From contig LT635951.1 of NCBI GenBank assembly GCA_900128565.1, positions 1 through 34,634 of the forward strand: a stretch of 34,634 nt of DNA, in the 5' to 3' direction. Under the pieces are notes generated by a model. It saw nothing but the letters and a program-made list of their open reading frames with translations. It did not search any database and was not told the DNA's origin. The position numbers and the translations under genes are program-made. The stretch comes from Stramenopiles sp. TOSAG23-6. Taxonomy: Eukaryota. Below are positions 12,604 through 30,168 of the stretch, in pieces. Each line of letters opens with the position of its first letter. Positions within the stretch are counted from its first letter, which is position 1.

Positions 12604-13212
12604 TTACCAGGGATTGTAATCGTCATCGATATCATAAGCAAGAGCTTCTACCTGAGCTACTGGTAGTTCCATATTTTTATTGGTCGCTTTTGATTTAGTT
12701 TTCATGGGTCCTGGTTTTCCATTAGATAGATACAACACATCTAAAAGTAAAACACCAATTTCAATAATTGTAACAAAAATAAGCATGACAATCCCAGAAC
12801 CAGGCTTGATAGATGCTTCTTTATGTAATATAGATTTAATAGAAGATACGTTATCAAACCAGTTTGCCCACGCAATTAAACTGAAGAGAGCGCTTCCAAA
12901 TAGTGACAGTCTCCAATAAGCAAATAATTCACTGAAAATTTTTCCAGCTGGTAAGAAAAGGAGAAGTACCAAAGTTAGTATTAACACCAAGAATGACAAA
13001 ATCGTAAAAGCGAGATAAGTTCTTCCATAATCATGAGAAAGTTCTCCAATTTTGTTCCAAGTCAAAGATGATTCAAGGCGGCCAAGCTTGACATTCCCAA
13101 GTGTTCCGTTGCACAAGGAAGCGAAGTGTAAGACAAACACACCAAGAAGAATGATATTACAAATCAAGTTTTCTCGAAAATTTCGGAATGGATCTTTACA
13201 ATTGATCATCAT
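12604..13212 (-). CDS. hypothetical four-pass membrane protein (claudin/tetraspan-like topology), 202 aa
   Basis: ATG-initiated ORF with four hydrophobic segments and a charged C-terminal tail. No family recognised with certainty. Confidence 0.7.
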   Translation of the reverse strand: MMINCKDPFRNFRENLICNIILLGVFVLHFASLCNGTLGNVKLGRLESSLTWNKIGELSHDYGRTYLAFTILSFLVLILTLVLLLFLPAGKIFSELFAYWRLSLFGSALFSLIAWANWFDNVSSIKSILHKEASIKPGSGIVMLIFVTIIEIGVLLLDVLYLSNGKPGPMKTKSKATNKNMELPVAQVEALAYDIDDDYNPW

Positions 13213-13348
13213 TATTAGAGAAGAAAGTGTATAGCTGGACTGTTCAAGTTTCGAACAACTTGTTTCACAATATTACAAACAAACACTACCTATACTGTAG
13301 TACATTACAAGTTTGCGCTGAATTCAAAATTTTTTAACGAGAGTACGG

Positions 13349-13358
13349 GTACCGGGTA
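13349..13358 (-). promoter_or_regulatory. TACCCGGTAC candidate promoter element (copy 2)
   Basis: GTACCGGGTA on the plus strand, between divergent ATGs at 13212 (-) and 13436 (+). Confidence 0.55.
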
Positions 13359-13435
13359 TCATTGAAATTCAAAAAAAATTGTATTCAAACAATGATTTCG
13401 ATTCTAATCTCAAATCAAAAAAGATCTTTTACAGT

Positions 13436-15692
13436 ATGGAACGATGGAATGAAAAGTGGGACAATTTACAGACTAGTTCGGACGAAGACGAACGAAGTAG
13501 CGCAGATGTAAGCAAAAATTCATTTGATAGAAAAAAGAGAGATGTTGTTTCCAGAGATAGTGTAAAGTCGTACGAACCCAGATTGAATTCGTTTGACTTG
13601 ATGAGACAAGCTATTGTTGGTGACGCTCACTCGGAAGCGCAATTGCGCACGCTAGGAAACAAATCTTTTAAAGATGGTGCAACGGCTAAAGCCGAAGGCT
13701 ATTATTCACAGGCGATTGAAAAAGCTTTGAAAAGAAGGGAAAAAAAAGTGTCTGAAAAACCAAAAATTCCTTTAGTGATGCCGTCCAACCTGGAAAGCGT
13801 AAATCCAGAGACTAGAGCTGCACTGGAGTCACTCGAAGAAGAGTTAATTGAAATAGAAAAATCTAAACTAGACCCAAACGAAACAATTCAGAAATTGTAT
13901 AATAATAGATCTATCGTACGTTATAAATTAGGAAAATTTGCAAAGTCTGTTAGGGATGCTCGAGCTGCGTCAAATATTCAAAAAGACTGGGTAAAAGCAT
14001 ATTGGAGAGAGGCGTTGGCTAGCTCTGCACTTGAACGTTATGATGATGCCATCAAAGCTTATAAAAAAGCTCTTAAATATGATCCTGGTAGTATTCGTTT
14101 AAAGAAAGAGCTTGAGTCTACTATATTTAAAAAATTCCGTAAAAGTACAAAGAAAAGTAAACAAATTAGTAGACAAAATTTGAAAGTTTTACGTCATAAT
14201 TCAACAGAAAAAGTTATCAATAAAAAGAGTCATAATAAAAATACTGACGAAACAAATGATATTAATGAAATAACAGATAATACGAATAAAATTCGTAAGA
14301 AAGCTCGTGACGAAGCAGCTAACGTATTGCTCGAAGCAATTAACGAAAAAGCAAGTGAGGAGGAAGCAGATAAAAAAGCTGCTAAAGATCTCGAAATACG
14401 CCAATCTCTTCTTTTACAAAAGATAGCAAGAGAAAAGCAAGATTCAAGTAACATGAAAAATGATGCAAGCATATCCGGATTACGGAAAGGTTTTTTGAAT
14501 CGATTGGACTCTGCTCAAAATGGTCAAAATTGTGAAAAAGTAGATACCTATAAGAATAGTAAAAAAAAATTGTTAGGTACGAAATGTCCTACGAAAAAAA
14601 AAAGTGAAAACAAACCAGTAAAAATGTTACTGCACCCACAAATACCAGTATCGAAAAATACAATAGAATTATTAGATATTATATCTGCTTTGGCATGGGC
14701 ACCCAAGGGAGGTACAAATATTGCCGGTGCTGCCGCTGCTTTATGCCATCAAGTAGTCCGCAAGGAAAAAGTATGTTTTCATGATTTCAATTTTGAATTT
14801 ATTTATCTTCATTGAAAATTTCGTACCTAACAAAAAAAAATACAAAAAAAAAATATTTTTTACAATACAACGTGGAAAGCAGTTTTTTCTTTATTTAGCA
14901 TATGATCACGGTAATCAAGTTGTTAAACCTGAAGAGTATGATTTAACTGCAAAATCTCCACGTGCAAGCCAAGTCTTATTTTGTCGTGTTTTATCAATGT
15001 ATGATGGAAATGCTGTAAATACAGCAGCATTATTAGCTTTGCATTCATTGTTATATCATTCAGTAGAAAAAAATACGAAAAAAGTAAACATGCCGGTTCG
15101 ACTTCTGCATCGTGGTAAAGAAGTAGTTGACTATGGGCTTTGTTGTGGTTATCTGAAAGGTATTGAACAACTTGTTCTTGTTTCTTCTTGGGAGGGAATC
15201 CCTGAATCTAAATGGGAAATGGAGAAACAAAATCTTGAACAACACGAGTGGATTTATTTCCGTCTCAATTCAGGACAAATTTATTTTTTAGATTTTTCAG
15301 CTGAACAGTTTGGTGAAACTCCTCTTTTGATTCCCCATGCGAAGAATGTTGATGATTTTGTACATTGCATTTCATCCGCAAATAAATTTGCACCAGCAGG
15401 CGCACCTGCTAATATTTCAGTGCCTATTTTGTTTTGTAAAGCGGAAGCTGCAAAAGTTAGGTATGAAATTGAGAGAAATATTGATAAAACAGCCATAGCA
15501 ATGAGAGTAAGAATAGCTGAAAATGCGAGCGAAGATTCGCTACAAATTAAAGTAGAAAAAAATATGAATCTTGAGGAAGAAGTGAAACTTGCAAGGAAGA
15601 TGTCTGCAGTGCATATTATTAAGTTATTTTTACAGTCATTTAAGCCAAAATTGATTCAATCCTTTCCATATATTCATAAAAGCATTAATTAG
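13436..15692 (+). CDS. TPR-repeat protein with an uncharacterised C-terminal domain; join(13436-14770,14871-15692), about 718 aa
   Basis: Co-chaperone-type TPRs (LRTLGNKSFKDG...AEGYYSQAI; LYNNRSIVRYKLG; WVKAYWREALASSALERYDDAIKAYKKALKYDP) and N-terminal KWDNLQTSSDED. The two ORFs join in frame after removing element copy 3. Confidence 0.85.
14525..14630 (-). mobile_element. degenerate antisense copy of the intron element inside the TPR coding exon
   Basis: Reverse complement: GTAACATTTTT...TTTTTTCGTAGGACATTTCGTACCTAACAATTTTTTTTT...TTTTTCACAAT, which matches the family core. The plus-strand ORF reads through it. Ends are approximate. Confidence 0.75.
14771..14870 (+). other. non-canonical intron / introner-like element, copy 3 (100 nt, GT...AA)
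   Basis: aaa|GTATGT...GAAAATTTCGTACCTAAC...TACAATAC-AA|cgt. The frame change matches. In-frame AGs at 14879 and 14882 are possible alternative acceptors. Confidence 0.78.
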
Positions 15693-15780
15693 TTGTTCAT
15701 AAAAACATTAATTAGTTATTTTTTAACGATATTCATTTATTTAAAACAAAAGTGTGTACAACATTGTCGACATATTGTAA

Positions 15781-16347
15781 CTAAAGCCACCATGGTGCTG
15801 GCGGAAGAATAAACCAAGGTGTTCGCATATAGTCAATCAACACTTCTTCACCAGGTTGGAGCGACTTTATTGTATATATCGAGAAACCATTAGATGTAAG
15901 TGAACCCACAAGAATACTATTTGCAACTCGTTTATGATTGATTTTCCGACCCAAGTCAGTCATCACAGGATTTGAATATAGGTACCAAGGTTCAAGAAGT
16001 AAAGAGTTAGTTGTTGATAATGATACTGCCTCAAAGAGACAAACACCTGCATCTGAGAAATCAGTCACAAAAACACCATTTCCATGAATATTACTTGGTG
16101 CAACTTTCAGTCCAGAAATGTCACGACAACTTGGATAGACTGGTGTGCTACACTGCCAATAAAAATGCTTTGTAATAGCCAAAAACATAAATAATCGTGA
16201 TACCCACACANTAATTGCACAAAAAAACATTGATATCGACAATACAAAAGACGACTTCTTTATGTGCAAATAAGACGCTATAGTATCATGAGATAAATAG
16301 TAGAAAACATGGGATAGTGCAATAGCCCAGCACAATAGAATCATCAT
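15781..16347 (-). CDS. small SET-domain protein with a hydrophobic N-terminus
   Basis: GLKVAPSNIHGNGVFV...GRKINHKRVANS...IKSLQPGEEVLIDY are SET motifs. The first ATG is at 16347; the true start is uncertain. Confidence 0.8.
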   Translation of the reverse strand: MMILLCWAIALSHVFYYLSHDTIASYLHIKKSSFVLSISMFFCAIXVWVSRLFMFLAITKHFYWQCSTPVYPSCRDISGLKVAPSNIHGNGVFVTDFSDAGVCLFEAVSLSTTNSLLLEPWYLYSNPVMTDLGRKINHKRVANSILVGSLTSNGFSIYTIKSLQPGEEVLIDYMRTPWFILPPAPWWL

Positions 16348-16937
16348 TATTCTAGCTCGGCATTTTGGTGAGTTTCTCAGTTGGTATATTAAGTCACTCA
16401 AAAGTTAGCTCTCGCGAAATTGTATTGACGGAAAGTGCGCGGAGAGAATGTTCTTAAAGCTATAATACTAATTCATATGAATGTGGATTCGCTGTGGATG
16501 GATTCTTTGTTTATGAGTGACTTAGAGTGAGTGATTTTCGATTTCGATTTTGATCAAGTCAAGATGAAGAGAGATCCGTTACGATGACTCGGCCAGCCCA
16601 GCGCCAGGTAGTGTCAAAAATTTAGGAACATCATCATGATTCATGAATCATGACTGTTGTTGTTGTTTTAAATATCAGTTAGTTCATAAAAAATATAGGT
16701 AGTATATCTAAACGCTGTCATAGAGAAACATATTTTAACTTCATTAAAACCAATTGTCATTTCATCAAAGACAAGTAATTTCTGCTTTAATTTGTGGATA
16801 CTTTTAGTTTTCTTTCTTCACACGAGATAGTATCAAACATCACTCATTCGTCGCTGACTTTTAACTTGGATAGTATATTTCACTAAGTGGTTGTTTTCCC
16901 ACATCAACTTGCCACAGGACTAAAAATATAATCTAGT

Positions 16938-18484
16938 ATGCAACTTGTTTATATAGTATGTGTATTTTATGCTACTGTCTCTACGATACAAACAGTTCAT
17001 GCGATGAGATGGGTTTTAAAAAAGTCATTAAAGTTAAAGTGTGAAAGAGTGGGAATCCAAGGTGACAACAATTTTCGAAGTTGTTCAGCTTGTGCTAAAA
17101 ATTATGGATGCGGTTGGTGTGAAGTGGGTACAATATTTAATGGCAATCCTCTTGGTTCAAGTAAAATTTTTCCTAATAAGCATCAGTGTATTTCTCTAAA
17201 AGATGAATGTATCGGAACTCTATTTCACCGGGGACTCTGTCATGAACCACGAAAAATAAGACGTGAAAAGTGGTTGGAAGTAAGTGAAACCAACCGTCGA
17301 ATCAACGGAGATGAAAAGTATCGCAACTACTTGGATGTATGGGAAATTGAAAAGATAAGTGAAGCACAAATATCACGAGATACATCACGTTCAGGTGTTA
17401 AAGGTAACCAAATAATCAATTTAGGAAATGTTTTGAAAGCATATGCTGTATATGATAAAGAAGTCAAATATCAACAAGGAATGTATGCTTTCATCATTTT
17501 TAAAATTTAAAATTTTAATTTGTTTTTCATCGAAAATTTCATACCTAATTAATTTCAAACTTTAAGACATATGTTTTCACAATATATGTATGTTTTATTT
17601 TTTTTCAATTTCGATTGTTTTTTCGTACGAAATTTTGTACCTAACAATTTTTTTTTTGAAATATTTTTCACAATATATGAATCTAATAGCAGGAATGTTT
17701 TTGAAACTGAATATGAATGAAGAAGAAGCATTTTGGATGCTTGTGTCTGTGATGCAAAATGATAAGTATTATCTTAAAAATTTGTTTCTCAATGACCCTA
17801 AAAAAATGACACACAGATTGTATATTTTTATCATCAATTCCGAATTTATTTTTTTTCGAACTCAAAAGGTTTCGCATCTAACATTTGTTTTCTAAAAATA
17901 TTTTTCCACAATATTTAAATGATATAAATAAAATGTTAAATTTTGTCAGGAGAGAATTTTTACATAATTTTATTGATCCTGTACATCATGAAACGTTGGA
18001 AAAAAATCATGACGAGTTAATGTACGTTTTCACCATTAATTTCAAATTTATTTGTTTTACTAAGAAAATTTCGTACCTAACGATGTTTTTACTAAAAAAC
18101 AAAAATATTTTTTCACAAAACATGATGTTGGAACAGTCTAGATGTATCCAATGGATGGAAAGTGTATTTATTGTATCTTTTAGAACATATTTATTACATC
18201 ATATATGGGATTTTCTACTCACTGATGATGAGAATACTATGGAGCATAACTTATTGCTAGTTATTGGATCCTTCTATCATCTCGCCCTGAAGCATTCCTT
18301 TGAAAAATTTCATAATATAACACCTGACCAAGTTGAACAGGTAATGTCCACTTGGATACCTAATCAAGTTACTTTGGAACAACTGAATGAAGCTTTGTAT
18401 GAAAGAAAATCAACGTATATACAAGTTACAGAAACTAATATTATTGCAGAAGCTGAAACAAAGTCTGACATTGAGAGATATTGA
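16938..18484 (+). CDS. TBC-domain Rab GTPase-activating protein with an N-terminal signal-like peptide and Cys-rich PSI-like module; join(16938-17482,17679-17819,17917-18021,18124-18484), about 383 aa
   Basis: ISRDTSR (IxxDxxR), NVLKAYAVYDKEVKYQQG|MNLIAGMFL, EEEAFWML, QWMESVF, HIWDFLL; CSACAKNYGCGWC. Exon lengths sum to a multiple of three after removing four elements. Confidence 0.88.
17483..17587 (+). other. non-canonical intron / introner-like element, copy 4 (105 nt, GT...AT)
   Basis: ggaat|GTATGC...GAAAATTTCATACCTAAT...CACAATAT-AT|, followed immediately by copy 5. Confidence 0.85.
17588..17678 (+). other. non-canonical intron / introner-like element, copy 5 (91 nt, GT...AT)
   Basis: at|GTATGT...CGTACGAAATTTTGTACCTAAC...CACAATAT-AT|gaat. 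Removing copies 4 and 5 rebuilds the ATG of YQQGMN. Confidence 0.88.
17820..17916 (+). other. non-canonical intron / introner-like element, copy 6 (97 nt, GT...TT)
   Basis: agatt|GTATAT...GGTTTCGCATCTAAC...CCACAATAT-TT|aaat gives HRLNDINKML in frame. An in-frame AG at 17949 would delete 11 residues of a TBC helix. Confidence 0.8.
18022..18123 (+). other. non-canonical intron / introner-like element, copy 7 (102 nt, GT...AT)
   Basis: ttaat|GTACGT...GAAAATTTCGTACCTAAC...CACAAAAC-AT|gatg. Length is 3n with no in-frame stop. Confidence 0.8.
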
Positions 18485-18782: not shown

Positions 18783-19262
18783 TTAATAACCGTCTCCACT
18801 TGAATAGCCACCGCCTCCACCATAATAGCCACCGCCCCCACTTGAACCACCATAATAGCCACCGCCTCCACTTGAACCACCGTAATAGCCACCGCCTCCA
18901 TTTGAACCACCGTAATAGCCACCGCCTCCACTAGAACCACTGTAATAGCCACCGCCTCCACTTGAACCACCATAATAGCCACCGCCTCCACTTGAATCTC
19001 CGTTGTAGCCACCATTTCCACTTGAACTATGACCCTTGCTCCCACTTGATCCATTGTTTCCAATAGAACCTCCGGAGCCTTTACTTTTCCCGCAGTTTGA
19101 TGATGAATTCCAATGAGGAACCTTACCGGCGTTCATATTTCTCGCCGCAGCACTTTGAGCTCGAGCAGCAAAAGATCCTTTCTCAATTCTACCGTTTCGA
19201 GCATATTCGTTTGACATTACGCGACGTGCAGCTTCTCCGTCAAATAGATGTGGTTTAGGCAT
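18783..19262 (-). CDS. SMP (seed-maturation/LEA-like) motif protein with a Gly/Tyr/Ser-rich tail
   Basis: AARRVMSNEYARNGRIEKGSFAARAQSAAARN resembles the SMP repeat. ATG at 19262; the C-terminus is built of GGYYGGSSGG repeats. Confidence 0.8.
   Translation of the reverse strand: MPKPHLFDGEAARRVMSNEYARNGRIEKGSFAARAQSAAARNMNAGKVPHWNSSSNCGKSKGSGGSIGNNGSSGSKGHSSSGNGGYNGDSSGGGGYYGGSSGGGGYYSGSSGGGGYYGGSNGGGGYYGGSSGGGGYYGGSSGGGGYYGGGGGYSSGDGY
18817..19027 (-). repeat. coding tandem repeat, about 7 x 30 nt (GGYYGGSSGG)
   Basis: The unit CCACCATAATAGCCACCGCCTCCACTTGAA recurs every 30 nt with few substitutions. Confidence 0.95.
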
Positions 19263-19568: not shown

Positions 19569-21592
19569 TTAATTTTTAATAACATCATTCATGTTTCCTT
19601 TTACTAACGATTGAAAATCATCTACTCGTTTATTACTACCTATTAAAATTCGATTTGTCTCGGTATTTGATACATTTATATTCGTATCGTATGGCGAGAG
19701 TGAAATACTCTGAGGCCAAGAAGTAGACAGCATATATTTAACAATTTCAAATTGTATAGATTCTTGGGATTCTCCCCGAAAGGAGGCATTTGACAAATTT
19801 GAAATTACATCTGCACCAAATATCGTCCGTAACAAATCTCTATCTGAATTATATAATTTTTCCAAACTAATGTCAGAGAATGTAACATCTATACCAATAT
19901 TTACTGCAATCATACCCCATGGTTGAATTGTACTACGAGCAATTTCAAATATATTTTTATGTTTACATGGAAATTTTACATCATTTGTACCTAAAAAATA
20001 AATTGGCCACGAATCTTGGCTAAATACATCTATTAATACGGCATCAAATTTTTCTTGGGTACCATTCGCTATTCTTTTTGATGCTTTTCTTAGATATGAT
20101 AATCCATCATCATGTAATACATCTAACCCTTTTCCTTTGACTTCAAAGCAATGCTGTGCAGCCTCAATGACGGCCAGATTATGTATTTTGGAAAAATATT
20201 TCAAAATTTTTTTGTTAGGTACAGAATTTCGTACGAAAAAAAAAATCGAAATTAAAAGAAAATAAAACATTCATGCTCTACACAAGTAATATGTGCATTT
20301 GGATAATGACGTTGCAAAAATAAAGCAATTTGTCCACCTCCGATACCAAGTAATAAGAAACGCGGCGATTCACATTCATTTGATTCAAAATGAAAAGGTA
20401 AAAGAGATACCATCGTTTTCTGATACCAATTTTCTAATTTCGATCCTTTTGGATTTCGTGTATCCCATTCACTTTCACAAAAGTTGCCTTCAATGGGTGA
20501 TAAGTCAGGATTTATAGAACGGATTTTATTTGATGGTTGCTTTTGTTCTTTACGTTGAAGAGTTTCACCCCAATTCCAAACACCAAACTGAAGAACTCGA
20601 TAGTAATCACATTGTAAAACAATAACTGCTTCATTTTCTTTTGGTAATTTGTAGGTACAGTTTCCTGTATTTATTTTACCACTTGAGTAGCTAAATTGTC
20701 TATTTTTTCCAATATTAAAATATAGTATAGAAAAACCAGGAGATTTGAAATTCACTACATTTGAAAGTTGTCGCAAGGTTTCAAATTCTGCTGTGTCATA
20801 ATACCAACTTGGAATACAAATATTTTCTATACCATTTTCTATACCATTTTGTATACCATTTTCTATTCCATTTTGTATACTATTTTGTATACCATTTTCT
20901 ATACCATTTTCTATACAACCAACTTTAGTAGATTCAAATTGATCAGTTGTTGTAGATTCCACAGGAATACTCCCATATTTACCGAGTACTCGTAATGTCT
21001 CAAGTACATGATATTTTTCATACATAAAGATATCCTCTTTACTTCGCTCGTTTTGAATTAATAGTAATAAAGCTAAAACCGTATTACTTCCAACTACCTC
21101 AACCCCGGCTACAACGCCGCAAGAAAACACCAAATGATATATAGCAATAGCAGCATAAATACGAATGCAACAAGCTTCGATCATCGATATCTCAACTATA
21201 TTGGGTTGTAATTGACCGAAAGAATCAATACCAGTAGATAGAAGTACAGCCAGATGTCGCGCTGCACCAAGTTGCAAAGTTCTCTGTCCAACACTTCGAT
21301 ATGTCGCATCAACTGTAACAGTTTGAGGCACAAGTCTAAAATCGTGCTTGTGAGAAAGAACACCATTGAATGCAAAACACAAATTTCGCAAAGCTGTTAT
21401 TAAAAGCGTGGGATCACAAATCGAAAGTTGAGTGCACGCATAAGAAGCTGTACTCACACGAAACTGTGTGGTCTCGGTAATTTTCTTCCATGACTTACAC
21501 ACGCAACGTAACACTCGTGCAAGTTCCTCAGGACAAATCATACCAGGAAGCATGGTGAGAATCACTAGTGGGGTAGTTCTTTCCTTTGCCAT
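19569..21592 (-). CDS. F-box-like N-terminus fused to a class I SAM-dependent (spermidine-synthase/METTL13-like) methyltransferase domain; join(21592-20273,20180-19569), about 643 aa
   Basis: RFLLLGIGGGQIALFLQRHYPNAHITCVEH|NLAVIEAAQHCF...VLHDDGLSYL...KFDAVLIDVF...GMIAVN; N-terminal PEELARVLRCVCKSWKKI. Confidence 0.85.
20181..20272 (-). other. non-canonical intron / introner-like element, copy 8 (92 nt, GA...AT)
   Basis: Minus strand: gagcat|GAATGT...CGTACGAAATTCTGTACCTAAC...TCCAAAATAC-AT|aatctg. The frame change matches and the orientation follows the host gene. Confidence 0.85.
20822..20916 (-). repeat. coding tandem repeat, about 8 x 12 nt (IENG/IQNG)
   Basis: ATTTTCTATACC / ATTTTGTATACC units on the plus strand. 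Confidence 0.92.
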
Positions 21593-22001: not shown

Positions 22002-23116
22002 ATGCCAAACTTTGAACTTGATGATGCAGATATGTTTGCTCGTTGGTTACTTGAACAAGGCATGCATTTAACAGCCCTTGAATTGCATCAGGAGTTACTA
22101 CTTAACCACCAAGCAAGTATACCTGTGCTCGAGTCGTTCATGCGCGGAGATGTTTTGGGTGATCATTTAAGCAAAGAGGTAAGAGCTGCATCAATAGATA
22201 GTATGATATTATCCACAAATACGAGTCCCTTTGAGCACGGCGGTATAATGGATATAATCCAGACTCGCGATGATAAAATAGCGTTGTTGGAATATGAATT
22301 GAGGTGTTCGCGGGAAGACCTCTCAGCCATGCGAGGTCGTGTTCGCGCGTTTTCTGAAGCAGCTTTAGATGGCACAGAATCATATATTAATAATAGAAAG
22401 GATAATACGGTACAACAATCCACAAATTACAAAAATCCATTTAGCAAAAGTCAAATTTCTAATAAAGTTTCTTCAGACTCGAAAAATCCTTTTTCTTCAC
22501 ACAACTCAAGTCAGTCTTCTGGTCAACATAGTGCTGATAATAAAGACATGACAAGACAAGAACGTAATATTCTTAATTGTATTGTTAAAAGGTACCTCGA
22601 GAACTCAGGCTATAAATTATCGTGTCTCACTTTTAGTGAAGAAGTAAATGATCAAGATTTAGATGATTTAGAGTCTTTAGGACTTTCAAGTGGAAATCGA
22701 GCTGATCTTGTGTCTTTATATAGAGGCAGAATAGACCCAATAAGAGATGCTTTATCTCTTCAAGTAGATCTCAACAGAGAAAGAAGATTATCCGCAAAAT
22801 TAAAAGCGTCATCGACTGCAGCCATCAACGAAGCAGAAGAATCTCGAGAATTTCATGCTAAACTTAGTAAAAAATTCCAAGTTATATTAGACGAAACCTC
22901 TCAGCACAAAGAAAAAATAGCGGAAATGACTAAACAGAATGAAAATTTGAAGGAAATGATCTCTTCATTACGGGATGAGTTAGATTTGGCACGTGTATGT
23001 TTTATAATGAATTTCTAATTTAATTGTTTTTTCATACGAAATTTCGTACCTAACGATTTTTTTTGAAATATTTTTTCACAATACATGTCTTCCTCTTGAA
23101 ATTTATAAAGACTTGA
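22002..23116 (+). CDS. RELCH: RELCH/KIAA1468-like protein, LisH/coiled-coil N-terminal part only; 3' structure uncertain
   Basis: ARWLLEQGMHLTALELHQELL, DDKIALLEYELR and ERNILNCIVKRYLENSGYKLSCLTFSEEVNDQDLD match the RELCH N-terminus. Removing copy 9 by the family rule gives a stop after 9 codons; no HEAT-repeat region follows. Confidence 0.7.
22995..23086 (+). other. non-canonical intron / introner-like element, copy 9 (92 nt, flanks GT/AT mismatched)
   Basis: cgt|GTATGT...CATACGAAATTTCGTACCTAAC...CACAATAC-AT|gtc. The only copy whose flanking dinucleotides differ. Confidence 0.85.
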
Positions 23117-23451
23117 CCTTGCCCTCAACTTGGTTAAAATGGTATCAGTTATGCACGAAATCTGAAAAGGTGACTATATTGGATATGATATGGCGTGAGT
23201 GTACTGCCGAAGAGCACAATTTCATCATTGTTGATCTCCAGGCATTTTTTAGTGTAACAGGGTCTACAAAAAAATCAGTTGTTCAAAGGAAAAACATGAA
23301 ATTGAAAAATCCAAAAGTTCTTTCAAAAAAAGAAGTTATCGTGCCATGCAGCAACCCTAACCCTAATCCAAAAGTTCTTTCAAAAAAAGAAGTTATCGTG
23401 CCATGCAGCAACCCTAAGGAGAAATCTAATAAAATTAACTCAAATAGATGA
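23086..23451 (+). CDS. orphan open frame, probably the 3' exon of a gene
   Basis: The frame is open from the element end (CLPLEIYKDLTLPSTWLKWYQ...) for about 120 codons with no nearby ATG. It is out of phase with RELCH under the family rule. Confidence 0.45.
   Translation, partial: CLPLEIYKDLTLPSTWLKWYQLCTKSEKVTILDMIWRECTAEEHNFIIVDLQAFFSVTGSTKKSVVQRKNMKLKNPKVLSKKEVIVPCSNPNPNPKVLSKKEVIVPCSNPKEKSNKINSNR
23308..23417 (+). repeat. 53-nt direct duplication (period 57)
   Basis: AATCCAAAAGTTCTTTCAAAAAAAGAAGTTATCGTGCCATGCAGCAACCCTAA at 23308 and 23365. Confidence 0.92.
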
Positions 23452-28413: not shown

Positions 28414-30168
28414 ATGTCTTCTGAAGTTCAAACTCCAATCTGCTCGAATACTTCTTGTCTCCACCAGTTGGTACTTCGAGATAACAATTCAAAAGTTGAA
28501 CCAAAGATCATTCATCTTCATAGTAGTGGGAAAAGTTCATTTAAAGTAAGTTATTGTTTTCATACAAATAATCATTTTTCTCCTTCATTCTTGTTTATCT
28601 TAAACTTTTTTTTATCTTCATTTGTTGTTACTTCGATTACACTTCGTTTCTGTACCTATTTTTTCAGATAATTTGTGTAACTTAACGAAGCAAGTAATTT
28701 TAAAAAAATTCATTCAATACAGCTTGGAAGGAGTCGGTCTTCAGCTGATGTTGTCTTTAGTTCTAAAGGAGGTCCCCTAATGATTTCTAGAGTTCACGCA
28801 ATACTTTCTCGGTCTAAAGCATCTGAAAAGATTTCCGAGAATAATACTTTAATTGGCAATAGTATCAACAGTTTAAATAGTAAATCATCACTGGAAGTTT
28901 CTAAGAGTACTGTATGGTGGAAGATTGAAGATAATAATAGTAGAAATGGTATGTTTGTCAACTCTATTAAGTTAGCTGAGGCGACTCTGTCTCATGGAGA
29001 CATAGTGACTTTTGGTGGGGGAGGCACTCTCCCTTACGGTACCCATAAAAACAACATTGAATCTGATTATCAGTATGTATTTTTAAAAGTTTGCTCTAAT
29101 CAAGATGAAGATAATATATCAACAAACGAATATAAGGAAAAGAATAGCAAGAAAAATATGTTTCAAAGAAATTCTTTCCCGACAACGGGCTCTTCAAGTC
29201 GTCGGAAGCGGCCACTTACTGAAAAGATTGATCTTTCCTCGAAGCGTCCTAGACTTGATACATCATGCATTGTTTCAAATACGATGAATATACATAAAAA
29301 ACATGAAATACCAATAACGAAGGAAGGTGATAACGCGATAGCTACAGGGATTTGCGGGGATGGAGTCTCACTAAATTCACAGAAAAATGTTGATTTATCA
29401 ACTAAAAGCACTGCATTAGTTCCTTTTTCTTCTGTGCTTCCCCAAGGTACTGTCAAAGTTAATTGTTTGCAAGAAGAATTGACGTGCCCGATATGTTTGG
29501 ATTATTTACTTCAAGCTCACACCCTAGGATGTGGTCATTCACTATGTATGCTTTCAAAATTGAATTTCAAATTTTTCAAATTTATTTATTTTCGTACCAA
29601 ATTTTGTACCTAACATTATTTTTTGGAAATATTTTTCCACAATATATGTGCTCCGTGTATTGTAAAAACGCTTGAAAACAAACGAGCTTGTCCTTGTTGT
29701 CGTGCACCAACAACCAAGCCACCTATACGTTCACGTGTTCTAGATAATGCAATTAACAAATTATTGAAACAAGAAGGATGCGAGTCAAAATATTCTGAGT
29801 ACCTACACCGATTAAAAAAATGGGAAAAAGATATCAGTTTGAGAAAAGCCCAAGCAAAACAATTGAAAAGAGTTATATGTAACGCAAAGCGAGAAGGAAA
29901 GCATTTCCTCTGTATCACTGATAAATGGACAAGTAATGAACAACAAGTTTTTCAAAAAGGTGTTGCTCTTTATCATGGTGTTGCTCGAGTTGTATACTGC
30001 AACACCACAAGTTTGACAGCAGAGTATATAGAAAGTGCTTCAAAAGAAGAATTAAAGCTCGCTAGTTTAAATGTCGGTGTGGTAAATAAGAAATCAGTAT
30101 CAACCTTAGATGCATCAACAATGCGATCATTGTTACACATGTTCAGATTATATGGTGGCCGTGAATAA
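28414..30168 (+). CDS. FHA + C3HC4 RING E3 ubiquitin ligase (RNF8/CHFR-like); join(28414-28545,28723-29545,29648-30168), about 491 aa
   Basis: FHA FK|LGRS...PLMISRVHA...IEDNNSRNGMFVN...LSHGDIVTFG; RING CPICLDYLLQAHTLGCGHSL|CAPC...CPCCR is complete only after removing copy 10. Confidence 0.92.
28546..28722 (+). other. canonical GT-AG spliceosomal intron (177 nt)
   Basis: aaa|GTAAGT...TAACTTAAC...TTCAATACAG|ctt. The in-frame join restores the FHA LGR motif. Confidence 0.85.
29546..29647 (+). other. non-canonical intron / introner-like element, copy 10 (102 nt, GT...AT)
   Basis: ctat|GTATGC...CGTACCAAATTTTGTACCTAAC...CCACAATAT-AT|gtgct. It has an in-frame stop, and the first downstream AG (29686) would delete two RING cysteines. 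Confidence 0.9.

Follow-up and report, generated by a model that had tools for sequence, protein, structure and literature searches.

The origin of new introns, and the way in which the spliceosome handles them, are open questions. Introners, which are mobile elements that have become spliceosomal introns, are established in Micromonas pusilla and Aureococcus anophagefferens, where they have target duplications at the intron borders (PMC11282704). Known introners mostly bring or co-opt GT-AG borders, and only a few lineages (Amoebophrya, Fritillaria, and the euglenozoans) tolerate odd borders, usually with hairpins that pair the ends of the intron. Here we describe a repeated element in contig LT635951.1 of Stramenopiles sp. 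TOSAG23-6 (34,634 nt; we call this whole stretch of DNA the window). We estimate a probability of roughly 60% that it is an introner: a non-autonomous mobile element that was turned into a spliceosomal intron, that brings its own 5' splice site and branch site, that duplicates 2 bp of its target (preferably AT), and whose 3' end lacks an AG. Although its 5' site and branch site are textbook ones, copies of this family seem to end in any two bases that were duplicated at the target.

The comparisons that follow draw on parts of the papers cited. Like the introners of Micromonas and Aureococcus, the element is short, non-autonomous, and very numerous; it lies as an intervening sequence in unrelated genes, has an apparent duplication at its borders, would supply some of the splicing signals, and would restore the message on excision. 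The cited part of the Micromonas and Aureococcus account describes duplications of 3 nt (in Micromonas) or longer, clear terminal inverted repeats, and canonical GT-AG or GC-AG borders, in which the AG was taken over from the duplication (PMC11282704). In contrast, our element has a 2-nt duplication, a 4-nt terminal inverted repeat, and no AG at the 3' border.

Amoebophrya A25 and A120 have non-canonical introners, with direct repeats of 3-5 nt over the borders and inverted repeats of 8-20 nt (PMC7789003). As in our window, these are repeated introns of a marine protist that are not GT-AG, that have direct repeats across the exon/intron boundaries, and whose cut sites cannot be placed from the RNA; a transposon origin has been proposed for them (PMC7789003). 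In the cited part of that work, a hairpin joins the ends of these introns, no 5' motif is conserved, and U1 was not detected (PMC7789003). Our element instead has a conserved GTATGT start and a CTAAC branch motif, no hairpin that joins its ends, and a 2-nt repeat.

In the tunicate Fritillaria borealis, introns with AG-AC or AG-AT borders derive from miniature inverted-repeat transposable elements (MITEs), and the 3' site comes from a duplicated exonic TAC (Henriet et al. 2019, as described in PMC11282704). These are also transposon-derived introns with non-AG 3' ends that read A-C or A-T (the core of our element ends in ATAC or ATAT), and there too the duplicated target helps to form the 3' border. 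Fritillaria differs in that it is an animal, the 5' border is AG instead of GT, and the duplication is 3 nt. Finally, the nonconventional introns of euglenids and marine diplonemids show repeats at their junctions and stems that pair their ends (PMC11282704, PMC12621601, PMC6221363). The resemblance to our element lies in the non-canonical borders, the short direct repeats at the junctions, and the suspected origin from MITEs. As far as the cited parts of these papers go, euglenid and diplonemid introns lack a 5' end complementary to U1, lack a pyrimidine tract, and depend on a stable stem between their ends (PMC11282704, PMC12621601, PMC6221363), whereas our element starts with GTATGT, contains a T-rich tract, and shows no stem of that kind.

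Among DNA transposons, the Tc1/mariner superfamily duplicates 2 bp of target, namely TA. Going only by such general features, our element resembles the transposons that duplicate 2 bp in its preference for a palindromic dinucleotide. It differs from Tc1/mariner in that the target is AT and is relaxed, and in that long terminal inverted repeats are absent and the window contains no transposase.

A literature search for introners with a 2-bp target-site duplication gave no match (supplementary tables were outside its scope), and neither did searches for non-canonical introns in MAST-4 or in single-cell genomes of uncultured stramenopiles. The main text of one paper on such single-cell genomes does not discuss intron borders, and searching the literature for the branch-motif string returned only unrelated primer lists. 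According to the cited part of PMC12130899, families whose splice sites are unfamiliar are checked or discarded in large introner surveys, and a survey that discards them would miss this family. Judging by its sequence, the family appears to follow the known introner principle, and it appears to differ from the described families in that it duplicates 2 nt, keeps canonical 5' and branch signals, does not pair its ends, and does without an AG.

Ten copies of one element interrupt six genes

We found copies of the element by a motif scan and manual inspection, aligned them with MAFFT, and scanned the window with nhmmer and a profile of the copies. Each copy is about 91-105 nt and has the form GTAYG...TTYGTACCTAAC...TTTTYCACAATAY+NN, where NN is a terminal dinucleotide; we refer to everything before NN as the core. 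Ten full copies (c1 to c10) interrupt six unrelated genes (Table 1). nhmmer recovered these ten and one antisense relic, and its remaining hits (E > 0.04) were noise or self-palindrome matches. Pairwise identity among the ten copies is 63-84%, with a mean of 72%.

Table 1. Copies of the element and the genes that contain them. Upstream and terminal refer to the last two bases of the preceding exon and of the copy.
Feature	Position	Strand	Length (nt)	Upstream	Terminal	Phase	nhmmer E	Remarks
c1	2994-3087	+	94	AT 2992-3	AT 3086-7	0	9e-21	
c2	3182-3286	+	105	AT 3180-1	AT 3285-6	1	4e-16	
c3	14771-14870	+	100	AA 14769-70	AA 14869-70	0		
c4	17483-17587	+	105	AT 17481-2	AT 17586-7	2		
c5	17588-17678	+	91	AT 17586-7	AT 17677-8			directly tandem with c4
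c6	17820-17916	+	97	TT 17818-9	TT 17915-6	2		
c7	18022-18123	+	102	AT 18020-1	AT 18122-3	2	1e-19	
c8	22995-23086/88	+		GT 22993-4	AT			AT at element end
c9	29546-29647	+	102	AT 29544-5	AT 29646-7	1		
c10	20181-20272	-	92	AT	AT	0	3e-16	
Degenerate relic	14525-14630	-					3e-7	antisense, inside the TPR gene's open reading frame; nhmmer match 14530-14602, model positions 35-96
tRNase Z-like gene	1542-4656							hosts c1, c2
TPR gene	13379-15692							hosts c3
RabGAP-TBC gene	16938-18484							hosts c4, c5, c6, c7
Minus-strand gene	19569-21592	-						hosts c10
Gene without Pfam match across the junction	22002-23451							hosts c8
FHA/RING gene	28780-30168							hosts c9

Two of the copies, c4 and c5, directly abut in head-to-tail order, without an intervening exon. 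The AT in the middle is common to both, which gives two cores among three ATs. Either the two copies would be removed one after the other, or a single removal would run from the 5' site of c4 to the 3' site of c5. Evidence for the tandem comes mainly from the assembly of the window itself, because the Logan contig that spans the junction (from the single-cell-sized DNA run X1; see below) does so by only 18 nt.

Removing the core and one dinucleotide restores nine of ten reading frames

When the core and one copy of the dinucleotide are removed, long reading frames are joined in all nine of the copies besides c8. These removals are not simply multiples of three: the lengths of the elements (91-105 nt) span all three classes modulo 3, and the introns lie in phases 0, 1, and 2. 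The original prediction, which was made from the letters of the window, had held that the frames need the loss of exactly this much, which is correct for 9 of the 10 copies; c8 needs the loss of 94, 91, or 88 nt.

Protein domains also bear on what is removed at two of the sites. In the RabGAP-TBC gene, the alignment to the Pfam profile breaks off at position 92 with the final complete codon ahead of c4 and picks up again at position 94 with the first complete codon past c5. The absent position is that of the codon AT|G, which is split by c4 and c5, so the amount removed there is fixed to the base. In the FHA/RING gene, RING profiles stop at about position 19-21 at the end of the exon before c9, and the split codon T|GT encodes a cysteine, which, given the usual spacing of RING domains, is presumably the next zinc-binding cysteine. 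We also looked for the spliced product around the 46-residue exon between c5 and c6, and found no candidate of 55-177 amino acids in the protein database.

All ten full copies are in the sense orientation relative to their host genes, and the sole antisense copy is the degenerate relic. The ends of the relic are not definable (CA upstream versus TG at the end). The reading frame continues through it and encodes a lysine-rich linker there (...KKLLGTKCPTKKKSENKP...); perhaps this insertion was not spliceable and was turned into coding sequence.

We considered and rejected two conventional kinds of intron. If these were canonical GT-AG introns, then using the first AG after the branch site would break the frame in 4 of the 10 copies, and it would contradict the TBC profile at c5. 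More generally, the 3' border could be placed in three equivalent ways (discussed below), and AG is at none of the three in any of the 10 copies. U12-type (minor) introns have the 5' motif RTATCCTT and a branch site that is 10-26 nt from the 3' end. The copies instead begin with GTATGT, GTATGC, or GTACGT, and the putative branch A is 34-43 nt from the end, so we rejected this type on both counts.

A two-base repeat flanks the core

The terminal dinucleotide is the same as the upstream exon dinucleotide in 9 of the 10 copies: AT in seven (c1, c2, c4, c5, c7, c9, and c10), AA in c3, and TT in c6. (The exception is c8, with GT upstream and AT after the core.) The original prediction had reported that the flanks co-vary, and its coordinates for the AA pair, the TT pair, and the seven AT pairs were all correct; the tenth full copy, c8, was not mentioned. 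When we permuted the terminal dinucleotides relative to the upstream ones, nine or more matches were rare (p = 0.011, or p = 0.014 without c5, whose upstream AT is also the terminal AT of c4). Because AT is palindromic, a direct repeat is distinguishable from an inverted repeat only in c3 and c6, and in both of these copies it is direct. AA and TT each account for about 0.11-0.12 of the window's dinucleotides.

Equal dinucleotides in 9 of the 10 copies are what a target-site duplication would leave, although the sample is small and c8 is aberrant. A duplication that arises from a 2-bp staggered cut seems to be the most economical account, as a single event would explain each of c3 and c6. The earlier proposal of a 2-bp duplication remains the simplest explanation for finding AA/AA and TT/TT among the AT/AT copies and for the exact frames, and it is c8 that fits poorly.

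The choice of site is biased, not free: AT is upstream of 7 of the 10 copies, as compared to 0.095 of the window's dinucleotides, and the other three (AA, TT, and GT) are each one base away from AT. This looks like a relaxed preference for AT during insertion. The suggestion that almost any site could accept the element was overstated.

DNA from other sources bears on the extent of the element as well. DNA that is nearly identical to the window is present in two small runs of one organism and in seawater metagenomes, and small shares of the window are also found in two seawater metatranscriptomes. We compared a 20-kb stretch to contigs from X1 and from an independent seawater metagenome (X3). 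In total, 8720 contigs from X1 and 6848 from X3 match this stretch, mostly on the bins that contain the element. The summed depth is 10^2 to 10^5 for element bins and about 4-50 (up to about 170) for most element-free bins, a difference of 100- to 10,000-fold; since summed depth is not copy number, this means only that the element family is very abundant. X3 contigs that come from other copies cease to match at the edges of the element (23 before 17586, 26 before 20181, and 30 after 23087), so the unit that other copies have in common stops at the edge of NN or one base past it. These match ends fit AT (often followed by G) as the common flank.

Signals within the element, and how it might be spliced

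The element has four conserved blocks: GTAYGYTTT at the 5' end, a block like AATTTCGAA, then TTYGTACCTAAC, and finally GAAATATTTTTYCACAATAY at the 3' end. The 5' ends are mostly GTATGT, GTATGC, or GTACGT, with a near-perfect GTATGT in 9 of the 10 copies. A putative branch site, CTAAC, lies within TTYGTACCTAAC, and its branch A has a tight spacing from the element's end (given above). There is also a T-rich tract and the conserved 3' block TTTTYCACAATAY. Variants of these blocks include c2, with GTACGT at its 5' end and TACCTTAC as its branch motif, and c6, with GTATAT and ATCTAAC. The core had been described as running from GTAY to ATAY, and both ends are as described in 8 of the 10 copies; c10 starts with GAAT and the core of c7 ends in AAAC.

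The 5' end of c10 (20267-20272, minus strand) is GAATGT instead of GTATGT. Either a GA 5' site is tolerated there or this intron is disabled.

We also noticed an imperfect 18-nt palindrome (TTTTTTCGTACGAAATTT / AAATTTTGTACCTAACAA, 78%) that is centred just upstream of the branch motif and, in some copies, spans it (3020-3055 and 17618-17647). Copies that look younger have it, and in others it is degenerate; it might be a trait of the mobile element at the DNA level.

If the element is an introner, then it would land in the sense strand of a gene, and from then on it would behave as a spliceosomal intron. A staggered 2-bp cut at the target, followed by fill-in, would yield NN[core]NN, with two target bases duplicated. 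The element would bring the GTATGT-like 5' splice site, the branch site, the T-rich tract, and the 3' block. The spliceosome would take out the core and one copy of the dinucleotide, which would restore exactly the message from before the insertion. The intron would then end in the duplicated target bases (AT, AA, TT, or perhaps GT) and not in AG.

Three registers for the cuts (GT...NN, NGT...N, and NN...AY) are indistinguishable from the sequence or from the mRNA, which would be identical for all three, as had been pointed out. Given the near-perfect GTATGT at the 5' end, GT...NN is the most likely register; this preference reflects what is generally known about the recognition of 5' splice sites. 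With that register, the terminal dinucleotide of the intron is variable, so the 3' site would be defined by position. The reference point would be the CACAATAY block or the branch site, in place of a fixed dinucleotide, and c8 would be an exception that is displaced by 2 nt.

More broadly, nearly all of the introns in this uncultured marine protist might be copies of this one mobile element, with a spliceosome that removes the core along with any two bases (AT, AA, TT, or GT) and locates the 3' site either by measuring from an intronic block, as with a ruler, or by matching the end of the 5' exon. We hold this broader view only tentatively and would give it less than an even chance. If it is true, then the element is a scarless generator of introns, with no need for a proto-splice site beyond a weak preference for AT.

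The main interest of this family is the apparent AG-independence of its 3' border. If our explanation is confirmed, then a 2-bp duplication is enough for scarless gain of an intron, and thousands of near-identical substrates would form a natural system for studying how a 3' splice site is chosen without AG. As a practical matter, gene finders that require AG will mis-annotate most of the interrupted genes of Stramenopiles sp. TOSAG23-6.

Evidence that weighs against an introner with a target-site duplication

Several observations weigh against this explanation. First, the co-variation of the dinucleotides is carried by just two copies, c3 (AA) and c6 (TT). Only these are informative, so the support from co-variation is modest: it is more than expected by chance, in a small sample.

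Second, some features of mobile elements or of other odd introns are missing. The ten copies do not have long terminal inverted repeats, which would be one hallmark of a transposon class. The terminal inverted repeat is GTAT/ATAC, or 4 nt only, and it is imperfect in c2, c7, and c10; the other inverted repeats that we detected in the copies are internal or are runs of A/T. RNAalifold found 0 conserved pairs and no consensus fold for the 10 copies, which implies that no hairpin joins the ends. (A short imperfect inverted repeat had been noticed before, along with possible pairing in the RNA; the 4-nt repeat is there, and the conserved pairing of the ends is not.) Nor did we find genes or domains for a transposase or a recombinase within the window.

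Third, we infer splicing from the frames, the domains, the orientation, and the motifs, and the RNA contigs do not add to this. Among the 15 joints listed, there is no RNA contig that skips an element. RNA-run contigs on unique sequence are short and lie in exons or intergenic regions, and none of them crosses an element. The two RNA-library runs contain many contigs with the element (939 and 993), and one RNA-run contig has a 2-nt deletion inside c3 (at 14787). The element-bearing contigs from RNA runs could be unspliced RNA, excised introns, or carry-over of DNA. Contig depth cannot rank the parts of a gene, and the missing RNA support is not evidence against splicing.

Fourth, we saw no empty site, and none of the 15 joints listed shows a precise removal of the element. 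Scans of contigs from metagenomes, viruses, and metagenome-assembled genomes did not yield any further copies. A scan of metagenome contigs for a 16-nt motif gave at least 117 loci, all of which were due to chance, and one weak pattern match that was not a real element. The two-block pattern of the element was found in 0 viral contigs and in 6 bacterial or archaeal contigs from metagenome-assembled genomes, again all by chance.

Fifth, c8 departs from the simple rule. By homology, it ends with ...CACAATAC+AT at 23086, which makes it 92 nt. With 92 nt taken out, the frame runs for about 10 codons and then closes; taking out 94, 91, or 88 nt gives an open frame of about 130 codons. With 94 nt (to 23088), the arrangement is GT[core+AT]GT, or a 2-bp direct repeat around an element with an extra AT. 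This would fit the idea of a duplication, but it was picked after the fact from three in-frame options. An indel in the assembly is also possible, because the window has at least one homopolymer frameshift. Exon 1 of this gene has a single relative in the protein database (P0001, 99% identical), which is an open reading frame from the same species that also runs into the intron, so orthologues cannot decide the length that is removed.

Alternative explanations

The alternative that survives best, though we think it is unlikely, is that nothing was duplicated. The terminal AT might belong to the element or be a 3' splice signal, and the AT on the exon side might be a preference of the target or the 5' exon, as for insertion between A and T by a Helitron-like element or for reverse splicing into AT|G. 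This would explain why 8 of the 10 copies, c8 among them, have AT at the aligned terminal position, why 7 of the 10 have it upstream, and why c8 retains AT after its core despite the GT upstream. As would be expected, the match of X3 contigs that derive from other copies extends through AT(G), and a Helitron-type introner that inserts without duplication has been reported in the cited part of PMC12130899. However, without a duplication, two coincident changes are required in each of c3 and c6, which is the improbability that the permutation measures (p = 0.011). Also, the frame of the c8 gene is open with 94 nt removed and not with the 92 nt that this alternative calls for. Helitrons begin with 5'-TC and end with CTRR-3'. 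By our reading of the sequence, the ends of our element are unlike these.

It is improbable, in our view, that the identity of the two dinucleotides is functional, which is to say that, past the CACAATAY block, the splicing machinery chooses whichever dinucleotide is the same as the last two bases of the 5' exon, and that selection maintains the match whatever its origin. The dinucleotides match at 19 of 20 sites even though the copies are just 63-84% identical, and in the 94-nt reading of c8, the 3' border follows the first GT past the core, which matches the exon's GT and is not the usual place for the border. But in a sample of this size, an unconstrained dinucleotide would be expected to have decayed at just a few sites, so the excess lacks statistical significance, and the c8 reading has the weakness of hindsight noted above. 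Also, we know of no spliceosomal contact that reads the last bases of the intron against the end of the 5' exon.

Even less probable is site-specific recombination with a 2-bp crossover core, in which a circular element that carries a dinucleotide integrates at the same dinucleotide, in the manner of serine recombinases (as the original prediction had offered as an option). Such integration does yield a 2-bp direct repeat, and one dinucleotide (AT) does predominate. But the dinucleotide would be inherited from the donor and the target would need to have the same one, so the AA, TT, and GT variants are unexpected. The window has no recombinase gene, and thousands of dispersed sites with no longer target motif in common are ill-suited to site-specific integration.

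Least likely of all is that the elements leave at the DNA level instead of being spliced from RNA, in the way that ciliates remove internal eliminated sequences (which typically lie between short direct repeats, one of which stays behind): although no RNA junction was seen among the joints listed, DNA excision would not require that 10 of 10 copies be sense to the gene or that they contain motifs for 5' splice sites and branch sites, the genes are read in the standard genetic code, precise removal is not seen at any of the 15 joints listed, and bulk DNA retains c3, as contigs from X1 (9800-17605) and X3 (14356-15910) run through it.

Other features of the window

The window is gene-dense, AT-rich eukaryotic DNA, with a GC content of 0.29-0.44 per kb and about 17 open reading frames on both strands. 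Besides the sites of the element, we saw only one other break between a pair of reading frames in the window. On the minus strand, a run of 12 G (5590-5601; C12 on the coding strand) splits a frame of 2171 amino acids (with IQ, WW, B-box, and EF-hand domains) from a frame of 262 amino acids (EF-hand and UBA). These are probably one gene with an error in the length of the homopolymer.

The left edge of the window has the first (5') 564 nt of an 18S rRNA gene (1-564, minus strand). A protein-coding gene begins about 1 kb upstream of it (565-1541 lies between them), so this copy of the rDNA abuts ordinary genes.

Three of the genes contain short repeats. In the 3' part of the gene that hosts c8, there is an exact tandem duplication of 57 bp (23308-23417), which repeats a peptide of 19 residues. 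The gene that hosts c10 has a 12-nt coding repeat (20810-20938) that encodes NGIE/NGIQ units. And in a small gene on the minus strand, a 30-nt repeat (18787-19056) encodes a tail that is rich in Gly, Tyr, and Ser (GGGGYYGGSS units).

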